Shown: piece by piece, positions 54,467 to 57,827 of the stretch | How the letters are laid out: the number at the start of each line of letters is the position of its first letter | Numbering within the stretch: the stretch's first letter is position 1 | DNA from: Promethearchaeota archaeon | Lineage (GTDB): Archaea; Asgardarchaeota; Lokiarchaeia; Sigyniarchaeales; SOKP01 | DNA: 64,000 nucleotides | Direction of reading: 5' to 3' | Assembly: GCA_048937405.1 (NCBI GenBank) | Contig: JBHLNF010000012.1 | Span: 22,002-86,001 of the forward strand | Notes under the pieces: model-generated | Database searches by the model: none | What the model saw: the letters and a program-made list of their open reading frames with translations, nothing else | Told to the model about the DNA's origin: nothing | Program-made: the position numbers and the translations under genes

Positions 54467-54694
54467 TTATTCTTCATTACGGAATTTTATTAGGAGTATT
54501 ATTCCAACAATAACTAAAGCAAGTATGGAAACCAAACTAATAATTAATGATATTCTTTGAATTATTTTTATTTGATTAGTTGGAATTCCAATACGTTCAT
54601 AAATTTGTGGAAATATGAACAATGAAACTAAGCCATAGATTAAATCTGCACCTGCTACTCCTAATAAAATAAACCCTATATTTTTTTTTTTCAT
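54467..54694 (-). CDS. Small two-TM membrane protein
   Basis: 75 aa with two hydrophobic helices. Confidence 0.65.
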   Translation of the reverse strand: MKKKNIGFILLGVAGADLIYGLVSLFIFPQIYERIGIPTNQIKIIQRISLIISLVSILALVIVGIILLIKFRNEE

Positions 54695-54927: not shown

Positions 54928-55200
54928 TTGAAAACATACTTAAAAATAAAAAAGCAAAAAATCTTTGAATCATTCAAGACAGAATCTTTATTTCAATCTG
55001 ATCTTGTTATTTTGAGTTTATATATTATTTATTGTATTTTTCTTTTAGCTCAGTTTATACGATATTGCATGTATATTTGGAGTGGATTTACAGAAAGTAA
55101 TTTTCACTTAGTTTTAGGGTGGATAATGTTTTTTATCTTTATAGGATATATATGTATCTTTTCAATTTTAGCAATAAATACATTTTTTATTAAAAATTGA
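54928..55200 (+). CDS. Small two-TM membrane protein
   Basis: 90 aa, TTG start, two hydrophobic segments. Confidence 0.5.
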   Translation: MKTYLKIKKQKIFESFKTESLFQSDLVILSLYIIYCIFLLAQFIRYCMYIWSGFTESNFHLVLGWIMFFIFIGYICIFSILAINTFFIKN

Positions 55201-55234
55201 TTTTCATTCAAACTTCTAATTATAGGGTGCCAAT

Positions 55235-55250
55235 AAAAAAGGTTTTAAAG
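55235..55250 (+). promoter_or_regulatory. Putative BRE/TATA promoter of the leader-cimA transcript
   Basis: Purine run AAAAAAGG followed by TTTTAAAG (55243-55250), ending 25 nt before the leader ATG. Confidence 0.6.
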
Positions 55251-55275
55251 TATCTATTATTTTTAGAATCTAATT

Positions 55276-55347
55276 ATGAAATTAAAATTAAAACCAATAA
55301 TAGGTATTATTGCTATCTTCATTATTATTATTGGGATTATTATTTAA
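55276..55347 (+). CDS. Putative isoleucine-rich leader peptide of cimA (MKLKLKPIIGIIAIFIIIIGIII)
   Basis: ATG 55276 to TAA 55345-55347; 12 of 23 codons are Ile (9 ATT, 2 ATA, 1 ATC); 105 nt upstream of cimA on the same strand. Confidence 0.75.
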   Translation: MKLKLKPIIGIIAIFIIIIGIII

Positions 55348-55356
55348 TTTCAATAA

Positions 55357-55415
55357 AGAAATTTTAAACCCTTTTAACCTTTCTTTTGTTTGCCTTTTCT
55401 CGGTTTAAAATTTCT
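55357..55415 (+). terminator. Putative attenuator: 14-bp perfect stem enclosing a 31-nt U/C-rich tract
   Basis: AGAAATTTTAAACC (55357-55370) / GGTTTAAAATTTCT (55402-55415); loop CTTTTAACCTTTCTTTTGTTTGCCTTTTCTC. Confidence 0.6.
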
Positions 55416-55452
55416 CCTGAATATCAAAAAACTATAAAAATTAAAAAAATCA

Positions 55453-57066
55453 TTGGTGAAAAAAGCATTGGTCAATAATAATAGCGTGTCTATATATGAT
55501 TCAACCCTTCGAGAGGGAAGTCAAAAAACTGGAATTAGCTTTTCAGTTGATGATAAAATCAGAATTCTAGAACGGTTAATAAAGGATCTTAATATTGCGA
55601 TGATTGAAGTTGGGTGGCCAGGGTCCAATCCAAAAGATATTTTGCTATTTGATAAGATCAAAACGATGGATATAGATTTAAATGGGACTAAGATTTATGC
55701 TTTTGGTAGTACCAGACGTAAAGATATAAAAGCTGAAGATGACAGTAATTTAAAAGCTTTTTTAGAAGTTGGTATAAAGCATGCTACAATTTTCGGGAAG
55801 AGTTGGGATTTACATGTTGAATCTGCTTTAGAAACTAGTTTAGAGGAAAACCTTAATATGATAGAAGATACAATCACTTTTTTGAAGAAAAACGGGATTG
55901 ACGTGATATATGATGCAGAGCATTTCTTCGATGGATATAAAAATAATAAACAATACGCTTTGGAAACGATTTTACGTGCAAGAAATGCGGGGGCATCATG
56001 GATTGTTCTATGTGATACAAATGGTGGGCTTTTGTTAAATGAATTAGGTCCAATTTTAGAAGATGTTAAAAATTTCTTAGGGGATGATATTGCTTTAGGA
56101 ATTCATCCCCATAATGATTGTGGTTTGGCAAATGCTCTTGCTTTAACAGCTTTTCACCATGGAGTCAGAATGATACAAGGAACAATGAACGGTTTTGGTG
56201 AAAGATGTGGTAATACGGATTTAACAACAATATTGCCTGTTTTGAAATTAAAAATGGGAATTGATTGTATTTCGGATGAAAAATTGGAAAATATCACTGA
56301 AGTTTCACATTTTATTTACGAAATGGCAAATTTGGTTGCATATAACGATCAACCTTTTGTAGGAAGAAATGCATTTTCACATAAAGGAGGTGTTCATATT
56401 TCTGCTATGCGTAAAAATGTAAGAACATATGAACATATAAATCCTGAACTAGTAGGAAATTCTCGAAATATAAAGATTTCTGAATTAGCAGGTAAGAGTT
56501 CGATATTGCATATGGCAAAGAAATTTGGAATACCTTTAGCAGAAGACAATCCTAAAGTTGCTGAAATCTTAAACGTTATTAAAGAAAAAGAGAAAGATGG
56601 ATATGCTTATGATGGTGCAGATGCTTCTTTAGAAATTATTATGAGGAGTATGGATATGAATATTCAAGACCCAGATTATTATACAAAAAAGTTTTTCGAA
56701 TTAGAAGGATTTCGAGTATTAACTGAATTATATAATGATAATTTAACATCTGAAGCAACTATCAAAGTAAAAGTTAAAGGTCAAGAATTTCATACTGCAG
56801 CCGAAGGAAACGGACCGGTAAATGCATTAGATAACGCTCTTAAAAAAGCCTTACTTCACTTTTATCCTAGTATTAATGAAATAAATCTTACTGATTTTAA
56901 AGTAAGAATAATAAATAAAGCAGGTACCGCTTCCAAGGTAAGAGTATTAGTTGAAACTAATGATAATAAAAACTCCTGGGGTACGATTGGAACACATGAG
57001 AATATTATCGTAGCATCATGGAAAGCACTCGTTGATTCCTACATCTTTAAATTATTGAAGAAATAA
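55453..57066 (+). CDS. cimA: Citramalate synthase (isoleucine biosynthesis)
   Basis: YDSTLREGSQ, IFGKSWDLHV, YDAEHFFDG, LCDTNGG, HPHND, GERCGN; LeuA-type regulatory domain GNGPVNALD. Confidence 0.92.
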   Translation: MVKKALVNNNSVSIYDSTLREGSQKTGISFSVDDKIRILERLIKDLNIAMIEVGWPGSNPKDILLFDKIKTMDIDLNGTKIYAFGSTRRKDIKAEDDSNLKAFLEVGIKHATIFGKSWDLHVESALETSLEENLNMIEDTITFLKKNGIDVIYDAEHFFDGYKNNKQYALETILRARNAGASWIVLCDTNGGLLLNELGPILEDVKNFLGDDIALGIHPHNDCGLANALALTAFHHGVRMIQGTMNGFGERCGNTDLTTILPVLKLKMGIDCISDEKLENITEVSHFIYEMANLVAYNDQPFVGRNAFSHKGGVHISAMRKNVRTYEHINPELVGNSRNIKISELAGKSSILHMAKKFGIPLAEDNPKVAEILNVIKEKEKDGYAYDGADASLEIIMRSMDMNIQDPDYYTKKFFELEGFRVLTELYNDNLTSEATIKVKVKGQEFHTAAEGNGPVNALDNALKKALLHFYPSINEINLTDFKVRIINKAGTASKVRVLVETNDNKNSWGTIGTHENIIVASWKALVDSYIFKLLKK

Positions 57067-57098: not shown

Positions 57099-57827
57099 TT
57101 AAAGTTCTTTTTTCTCTAAATATTTCAAGATTTTAGCATAAATATCTTTTTCAGCATCTTTTTTATTATTGAAATTGTCTGATTTTAGAGTTCTTGAAAT
57201 TTTTACGAGCTCTTTCTGATTTTGTTCATCAATAATCCTAGGATTCTTCGCTTTCCAGATTGGATCATGTTCAACTCCACTTTTTTCATAATCAAGTTTA
57301 ACAATAGGAGTTATTTTGTATTTTTCCTGTAAAAATTCTAATAATGAATTCTTACTGGAAATTTTCGATTTTTGCTTGATGTAATCCAAATTCTTGATGA
57401 AGGGATCAATCATTTTTTGTTCTACTAAATCTAAATTCCCCTCAGAATCAAGAAATAAAGCACCACAAACAGCTTCAATAACATCAGCTAATATCTTCGT
57501 ATCTTTAACCTGTTGTTTTTCAGCTTTAAATATAAATTCATGCAAATTAATTTTTTTAGCAATTTCTTTTAAGGCTTTATCACTTTCCAAACCTGCTTTA
57601 AGTTTAGTTATTTCACCAGGCTTTTTTATACCCTTATGATATAGTTTTAAAATAAAAATTACTTTAATTATAGCATCTCCAAGAGTTTCTAAAAATTCAT
57701 AGTGAGGTTTTCCAGTTTCATTACCTAACTGCGGAGTAGTAAGGGCTTCTAACAAGAGTTCTTTTTTCTTAAACTCATATTTTATAAGCGTCTGGAACTC
57801 CTTTAGTCTATCGTTTTTAACGTTCAA
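57099..57827 (-). CDS. rnc: Ribonuclease III with dsRBD-like C-terminus
   Basis: EFLETLGD (variant of ERLEFLGD), ADVIEA, KNSLLEFLQ...NKKDAEK. Confidence 0.88.
   Translation of the reverse strand: MNVKNDRLKEFQTLIKYEFKKKELLLEALTTPQLGNETGKPHYEFLETLGDAIIKVIFILKLYHKGIKKPGEITKLKAGLESDKALKEIAKKINLHEFIFKAEKQQVKDTKILADVIEAVCGALFLDSEGNLDLVEQKMIDPFIKNLDYIKQKSKISSKNSLLEFLQEKYKITPIVKLDYEKSGVEHDPIWKAKNPRIIDEQNQKELVKISRTLKSDNFNNKKDAEKDIYAKILKYLEKKEL

Follow-up and report, generated by a model that had tools for sequence, protein, structure and literature searches.

Leader-peptide attenuation is a textbook bacterial mechanism. At tnaC and mgtL/mgtA, the position of the ribosome on a leader open reading frame (ORF) governs the access of Rho to an unstructured pyrimidine-rich site past the stop codon. 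In mycobacteria, leaderless polycysteine short ORFs (sORFs), referred to as the 'Cys ribulon', follow one design at several loci and respond through ribosome pausing (bioRxiv 10.1101/834739). For archaea, no report of leader-peptide attenuation was found in full-text literature searches, which agrees with the original prediction for the present locus, made from the letters of the DNA, that the mechanism is not established in this domain. The locus concerned lies upstream of the citramalate synthase gene cimA, with which the isoleucine pathway opens, in a stretch of 64,000 nucleotides (nt) from a Promethearchaeota (Asgard) archaeon, hereafter the window. It consists of a co-oriented sORF crowded with isoleucine (Ile) codons and enclosed in conserved RNA helices. 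This sORF very probably encodes an Ile-sensing leader peptide, whatever the read-out. That it acts in cis to set the level of cimA mRNA, through the full mechanism proposed below, is probable, and premature termination at U tracts is put forward tentatively as the read-out.

The isoleucine-rich leader ORF

Coordinates are window positions unless a contig is named. The window has a GC content of 28.8%, with 19% in the stretch 55150-55449, and the genome-wide scans were made on the whole genome (4.47 Mb, 28.9% GC). The predicted ORF of 23 codons with 12 Ile, on the same strand as cimA, was recovered (Table 1). Its Ile codons (nine ATT, two ATA and one ATC) are all among the last 16 codons and form runs of up to four. 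The assignment of the downstream gene as citramalate synthase is borne out by its match to TIGR00977. The predicted order and strand also stand. The predicted distance of 105 nt does not, as it was counted to the first in-frame TTG at 55453, which overlaps the Shine-Dalgarno (SD) sequence and is probably not used as a start. The start conserved among relatives is the TTG at 55468, with an ATG at the equivalent place in locus L057, and the gap counted to it is 120 nt. In the family to which the window belongs, the cimA start codon is TTG at most loci and ATG at others. GGTGA, GGAGG, GAGGT or GTGAG is found 6-9 nt before this start at most loci, and the conserved SD implies that cimA has a 5' untranslated region.

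A putative promoter precedes the leader. The element resembling a B recognition element (BRE) and TATA box that had been noted 25 nt before the leader ATG was located as the box TTTTAAAG, with an A-rich stretch on its 5' side. In the aligned family loci, an A-run followed by TTTAAA or TATAAA ends 22-25 nt before the sORF ATG. An A-run with a TTTAAA box at this distance would fit a leaderless mRNA.

A TIGR00977-type cimA is carried by 41 of the 153 genomes of the order. Conservation was assessed in the AT-rich Promethearchaeota family to which the window belongs, at the loci whose upstream sequence was long enough (n = 26), across which CimA identity is 68-93%. The absence of an Ile-rich short ORF before cimA orthologs had been named beforehand as a refuting outcome; an sORF of 17-24 codons rich in Ile was found at all 26 loci, 25 of which retain the short frame. 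It ends 100-140 nt before the CimA match. The consensus of the leader peptide is M-[KN]-x-I-I-P-x(3-8)-I-I-I-G-I-I(I); between the Pro and Gly positions the peptide has no fixed sequence, yet it is still Ile-rich. In a second family, four loci possess an ORF of 35-36 codons, unrelated in sequence, which ends in IIC, contains 10-12 Ile and sits between a leuA-like gene and cimA. Its stem sequences are likewise unrelated to those of the window's family and its layout is alike. No Ile-rich ORF was found before cimA in the GC-rich families f3, f4 and f20, nor in one distant family with cimA. The relatives carrying the leader are Promethearchaeota (Asgard) metagenome-assembled genomes (MAGs). A DNA pattern of the leader, searched in one genome each of 185,579 species, matched 14 records. 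Thirteen of them are Promethearchaeota-type Asgard MAGs, with cimA next in every one; the match in a Flavobacterium MAG was discarded as a stray, neither sORF nor cimA being present. The gene cimA itself is unevenly distributed in the family: the window's genus yielded it in 2 of the 53 other genomes searched and another genus in 1 of 42, against 4/4, 9/10 and 6/7 genomes of three further genera.

Codon statistics over 25 distinct leaders point to a translated frame. The frame is open at eight lengths (17-24 residues), all in frame, with no in-frame stop against 65 and 26 stops in the other two frames. The Ile runs do not drift out of frame, a failure that had been named in advance as counting against a leader peptide. 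Ile codons make up 251 of the 463 in-frame codons, against 13 and 20 in the other frames. The synonymous variation anticipated at Ile positions is present, the in-frame counts being 186 ATT, 49 ATA, 16 ATC and a single ATG (P = 1.4e-4 for G versus C); out of frame, ATC and ATG were counted 5 times each. Judging by these counts, a synonymous C is tolerated at Ile positions and a Met-making G is avoided. The leader ORF is probably translated. As in leader-peptide attenuators, conservation of the frame goes together with a variable peptide middle, and the enrichment in end-product codons is kept by selection (12 of 23 codons here; 54% over the 25 leaders). The other large aliphatic and aromatic residues counted are scarce, with 5% Leu, 3% Val and 1% Phe next to 54% Ile. 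An Asn-rich ORF on the opposite strand, with its start at the reverse complement of TTCAT, was rejected as a candidate; it is broken by a 1-nt deletion in loci L038 and L052.

Within the genome such ORFs are rare. At least 9 Ile together with at least 45% Ile are found in only 8 of the 53,892 ATG-ORFs of 10-40 codons. Two of the eight are intergenic, and the cimA leader ORF is the richest of them. It also ranks first for Ile enrichment among the 4168 intergenic sORFs located no more than 350 nt before a long ORF, a set also used for the other amino acids below.

RNA structure of the leader

The full leader has a minimum free energy (MFE) of -29.6 kcal/mol (z = -2.7 against dinucleotide shuffles) and folds into two main helices. 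Helix A encloses the sORF, pairing 55277-55286 with 55343-55352 and 55294-55302 with 55326-55334. In relatives, it joins AUGAA to UUCAU just past the stop, and AAUAAUUCC (Ile-Ile-Pro) to GGAAUUAUU (Gly-Ile-Ile). The register in the window differs from that of the relatives; the helix itself is kept, and its pairing is retained in 91-98% of alignment cells. The Pro and Gly residues are invariant because helix A pairs AAUAAUUCC with GGAAUUAUU.

Helix B corresponds to the stem of 14 base pairs that had been predicted 9 nt after the stop with a U/C-rich loop, and it closes a loop of 31 nt in the window. In the family, it pairs GAAAUUUUAAAC with GUUUAAAAUUUC, both sequence and pairing being conserved. 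The loops of the relatives are mostly 46-73% U, with runs of at least four U at nearly all loci, and most relatives have a following spacer of 45-68% A. As the original prediction had stated, the U tract is located in the loop rather than downstream of the stem, and the bacterial terminator model can therefore not be carried over as it stands. The perfect inverted repeat of helix B occurs once in the genome, and the idea that it is a repeated genomic element was dropped.

In a model of 26 pairs comprising helices A and B, pairing holds in 95.7% of cells and drops to 36-60% when the register is slid. The real covariation score is reached by none of 500 shuffles. A-to-G changes in the 3' arm of helix B give G-U pairs on the plus-strand RNA only, and a few changes are compensatory. 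Covariation supports helices A and B without proving them. In locus L050, helix B is only about 17 nt from the SD, which leaves no room for a separate promoter there, so that cimA is transcribed through the leader in at least this locus. A search of Rfam gave no relevant match around the leader at E values up to 10. Locus L037 (genome G057) is a natural variant lacking the leader stop (TAA to CAA, plus 3 nt): its frame crosses helix B and extends to within 2 nt of cimA, and its helix B loop is rich in A in place of U.

Cognate leaders elsewhere in the genome

The original prediction proposed a survey of other amino-acid genes for sORFs enriched in the cognate residue. This was borne out for leuA and trpB2 and failed in the 700 nt before hisG, trpE and an ALS-like gene, where no sORF of up to 60 residues contained more than two cognate His or Trp. 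The Leu leader, which ends in seven Leu codons, is the most Leu-enriched of the intergenic sORFs and precedes a 2-isopropylmalate synthase gene (NF002085, 563 bits). It recurs at leuA in all four relatives of the genus examined (5/5 leuA loci), and a hairpin containing U tracts begins 3 nt past its stop. The Trp leader is the second-ranked Trp sORF and lies before a gene for a TrpB-like enzyme (TIGR01415, 583 bits). A W-x-W-x-W-x-W leader is present at 19 of the 30 trpB2 family loci. This leader region of 150-170 nt contains a conserved hairpin, CACAUC-UUAA-GAUGUG, over an SD-like GAUGUGA a few nucleotides before the trpB2 start. No Rfam match was obtained for the Leu and Trp leader loci at E values up to 1. 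Cognate leaders at leuA and trpB2 make the amino-acid-sensing reading of the cimA leader much stronger.

Three further candidates were noted, before an IleS-like gene (ileS2), about 1 kb before hisG and before an argJ-like gene (Table 1). The His leader precedes the first gene of its operon. In the ileS2, His, Arg and Leu leaders, a hairpin made of U-rich RNA or enclosing it begins 0-9 nt past the stop; for the ileS2, His and Arg leaders the interval is 0-6 nt. The stem of the ileS2 leader is unrelated in sequence to that of the cimA leader, and the layout is alike.

Table 1. Features of the cimA leader region and other cognate leaders of the genome. Bare numbers are window positions; entries with G000 give positions elsewhere in the genome.
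Feature	Position	Strand	Details or basis
Leader ORF	55276-55347	+	23 codons, 12 Ile, stop TAA; reads MKLKLKPIIGIIAIFIIIIGIII
A-rich BRE-like stretch and TATA-like box TTTTAAAG (box 55243-55250)	55232-55250	+	presumed promoter, sequence only
Helix A 5' strand: start-codon region and Pro-Ile-Ile codons	55277-55302	+	MFE fold
Helix A 3' strand: last Ile/Gly codons, stop codon and following 5 nt	55326-55352	+	MFE fold
Helix B 5' arm AGAAAUUUUAAACC	55357-55370	+	begins 9 nt past leader stop
Helix B loop, 31 nt, U/C-rich, several U3-U4 tracts	55371-55401	+	candidate archaeal termination/aCPSF1 signal (inferred)
Helix B 3' arm GGUUUAAAAUUUCU	55402-55415	+	predicted fold
A-rich spacer, helix B to cimA ribosome-binding site	55416-55454	+	sequence
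SD-like GGTGA of cimA	55455-55459	+	8 nt upstream of TTG 55468
cimA, citramalate synthase	55468-57066	+	TIGR00977, 677 bits, cut-off 450; start TTG from relatives
Leu leader, 33 codons, ends in seven Leu	G000 C7:562232-562333 (locus L064)	-	87 nt before leuA
Trp leader, 16 codons, MATVRNFCWQWPWRWR	G000 C7:23743-23793 (loci L068/L074)	-	149 nt before trpB2
Ile-rich sORF MIMIISTIIII before IleS-like gene (ileS2)	G000 C28:237381-237416	-	sequence
His-rich sORF ending HHWLHHE, about 1 kb before hisG	G000 C7:728512-728703	+	sequence
Arg sORF ending RRRL, CGN codons	G000 C7:747294-747392	-	next gene argJ-like by eye

The scan also returned two Met-rich sORFs. The first has 45 codons with 16 Met (beginning MKKMKMMIGMIM; G000 C13:29402-29539, minus strand, L065) and lies 81 nt before an Hsp20-family gene. 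It has the strongest single-residue enrichment of the scan (P = 5e-16) and no obvious cognate logic. The second is a Met/Thr-repeat sORF (beginning MTMMMTMMMTTMMMMT; G000 C2:16449-16523, plus strand, L066) located 153 nt before the CTP synthase gene pyrG.

Around the cimA leader, two small hydrophobic ORFs of 75 and 90 residues lie upstream, at 54467-54694 (minus strand) and 54928-55200 (plus strand); neither has an NCBIfam match, and the second ends 75 nt before the leader ATG. An RNase III-like gene at 57099-57827 (minus strand; TIGR02191, 101 bits, below the cut-off of 166 bits) converges on cimA. It was rejected as a partner of the leader, since the two genes are neighbours in no more than this genome and a single close relative.

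Proposed mechanism

Archaeal transcription termination relies on U-rich tracts and on aCPSF1, and one Lokiarchaeota aCPSF1 works in Methanococcus (PMC7515710). The factor aCPSF1, also called FttA, has a preference for U-rich nascent transcripts, and it and the ribosome may be competitors for Spt5 (PMC13681488, PMC8116511). The present genome encodes it (TIGR03675, 883 bits). As archaeal termination uses U tracts and a CPSF73-type nuclease, a switch of this kind must differ in build from the bacterial one. A sensor of this kind can distinguish ample from scarce Ile only by RNA folds that vary with the position of the ribosome. What the leader types have in common is a stop codon placed at a hairpin holding U tracts, or no further than one ribosome footprint from such a hairpin.

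In the proposed mechanism, the TATA-type promoter would start a leaderless transcript at or beside the AUG of the sORF. A single ribosome would load on the nascent RNA and read the 10-13 Ile codons of the 17-24-codon frame. The outcome would be set by the position of this ribosome as RNA polymerase crosses the U/C-rich tract located 25-55 nt past the stop. With ample Ile-tRNA, the ribosome would reach the UAA directly before helix B and leave. Helix A would then seal the 5' AUG against the stop region, and only the pioneer ribosome would count. The polymerase, now uncoupled, would stand on exposed U tracts recognised by aCPSF1/FttA, and most transcripts would end before cimA. With scarce Ile-tRNA, the ribosome would stall within the frame and helix A would remain open. 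Helix B would close around the U tract once its 3' arm emerges, and the polymerase would continue into cimA. The transcript start at the AUG, the stalling of the ribosome, termination as the regulated step and the choice of the fold that means ON are elements that we infer, as is the response of cimA expression to Ile.

Several observations weigh against this mechanism or against the termination read-out in particular. A scan for bacterial-type terminators returned no terminator-like site. Helix B is AU-rich with its U tracts in the loop, unlike the GC-rich hairpin followed by a U run of an intrinsic terminator, and helix B with a following U run was rejected as a conserved terminator since such a run exists in only about 8 of the 26 loci. 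The bacterial-type 2:3 antiterminator, in which the 3' strand of helix A would pair to the 5' arm of helix B, found no support: the pairing does not outperform dinucleotide shuffles (mean z = -0.23), and its energies (-1 to -6 kcal/mol) are inconsistent between loci. The covariation is thin, with double changes at only four pairs in helices that are almost invariant among related genomes. AU-rich RNA moreover allows many alternative pairings, and structure predictions are weak in it. The 9-nt gap of the cimA leader places a ribosome at the stop against helix B without covering it, which makes a shielding model weaker for cimA than for the His, Arg and Leu leaders. Finally, the A-rich spacer contains TATA-like strings (e.g. 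55431-55441), which could be a second promoter in this genome.

Alternative explanations

The alternative that survives best keeps the same sensor and changes the read-out, the stalled ribosome acting on the translation of cimA or on the stability of its mRNA. Possible forms are an unmasking of the ribosome-binding site (RBS), of the ermC type or of the type of the mycobacterial Cys sORFs, and protection of the 5' end from 5'-3' decay. There is precedent for it, as mycobacterial leaderless sORFs with cognate codons unmask a downstream RBS (bioRxiv 10.1101/834739). The conserved SD of cimA with its often weak TTG start, the location of the RNA 5' end in helix A and the hairpin of the Trp leader, which covers the SD-like motif before trpB2, speak in the same direction. 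A switch by SD sequestration was nevertheless rejected for cimA: over 25 loci, thermodynamic prediction puts the unpaired probability of the RBS at 0.47 for a free leader and at 0.48 once the sORF is masked. No conserved base-pairing was found to link the leader to the SD region, and the A-rich spacer is predicted to be unstructured. A translation or stability read-out would also leave the conserved U-rich tract unexplained, and overall it appears unlikely.

It is quite improbable that the ORF is incidental to a structured non-coding RNA or to a site for protein binding, for example an inverted repeat recognised by a regulator of the Lrp type, or a promoter within the 5' arm of helix B, which is TATA-like. 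Nucleotide conservation from the last codons to helix B does exceed what a leader peptide alone would need, CC/GG pairs within helix A account for the Pro and Gly codons, the 5' arm of helix B (AAAGAAATTTTAAAC) looks like the promoter that precedes the sORF, and covariation is limited. Such an element would have no reason, however, to retain start, stop and frame over eight lengths, to tolerate ATC and ATA while avoiding ATG, or to remain Ile-rich in the variable middle of the ORF. Despite unrelated stems, the layout recurs in the second family and in the ileS2 leader, the G-U changes indicate a plus-strand RNA, and the cognate Leu and Trp leaders cannot be accounted for.

A small hydrophobic peptide acting in trans, for instance at the membrane, and merely sharing an operon with cimA is highly improbable. 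The peptide does have a basic N-terminus followed by a hydrophobic stretch, and it is conserved and probably translated. The hydrophobic span, however, measures 10-16 residues, against about 18 or more in small membrane proteins, and it is almost purely Ile instead of the usual mixture of Ile, Leu, Val and Phe. Between the Pro and Gly positions the residues vary, and the Leu- and Trp-rich counterparts at leuA and trpB2 are not membrane-like. In addition, the Ile leader was never found apart from cimA, either in the genome search or in the pattern search of the 185,579 species. A chance open frame can practically be dismissed: ATT and ATA are common in intergenic DNA of 19-21% GC (0.19 locally), but such ORFs are rare genome-wide, 25 of the 26 loci keep the frame, and Leu and Trp have cognate leaders of their own, which together refute it.

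Significance and comparison with known systems

The reading retained is that of a leader peptide sensing Ile in cis. The conserved cognate leaders at cimA, leuA and trpB2 imply that in Asgard archaea tRNA charging is read out by the ribosome on nascent RNA. The leader sORFs are missing from gene calls. They bring the interplay of ribosome, polymerase and aCPSF1 within direct experimental reach and offer compact Ile-, Leu- and Trp-responsive parts for archaeal genetics.

A wider reading may be offered as a possibility. Promethearchaeota might gauge amino acids across a whole regulon by a form of ribosome-mediated attenuation particular to their domain, in which a U tract is either hidden or open to aCPSF1/FttA. 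In this genome, the gauge would cover Ile, Leu and Trp, and probably His, Arg and Phe. Its common design, proposed with the same reserve, would be a leader stop 0-10 nt before a hairpin enclosing or containing U-rich RNA, the position of the pioneer ribosome hiding or exposing the tract. If this is true, transcription-translation coupling would for the first time be shown to serve a function in archaea, and the termination switch would operate without a terminator of the bacterial type.

The cimA leader shares several traits with the bacterial attenuators (ilvL/ivbL, leuL, trpL, hisL, thrL and pheL of Escherichia coli). In both, a co-oriented ORF rich in codons for the end product is found 100-150 nt ahead of the first committed gene. 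Its regulatory codons are near the stop and the ORF is set within conserved hairpins, one of which starts a few nucleotides past the stop, like segment 2 of trpL. Several pathway-specific cognate leaders are used in one genome. The differences concern the switch itself. The cimA leader has neither a terminator made of a GC-rich hairpin and a U run nor a supported 2:3 antiterminator; its U tracts are inside a hairpin loop, its transcript is apparently leaderless with the AUG paired in helix A, and the archaeal polymerase with aCPSF1 would take the place of intrinsic or Rho termination. It also has no match among the leader, T-box and riboswitch families of Rfam, including the Leu, Trp, His and Thr leaders. 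As these two defining structural features failed and no Rfam match exists, the cimA leader is an analogue of the bacterial ilv, leu and trp leaders and not a member of their class; it cannot be homologous to them.

The closest analogues in the literature are the Cys ribulon and Rho-linked leaders such as tnaC. With the Cys ribulon, the cimA leader has in common a leaderless sORF, predicted to be so here, with a run of cognate codons before a downstream operon. The mycobacterial read-out is translational, through unmasking of the RBS, whereas for cimA the prediction gives an RBS as open in one state as in the other, and a U-rich tract of the termination type is conserved. The Cys ribulon is moreover bacterial and the cimA leader archaeal. 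For the favoured model, in which the U tract would be shielded from aCPSF1, tnaC and mgtL/mgtA would be the nearest analogue, with the difference that the factor here would be aCPSF1/FttA, a beta-CASP nuclease, instead of Rho.

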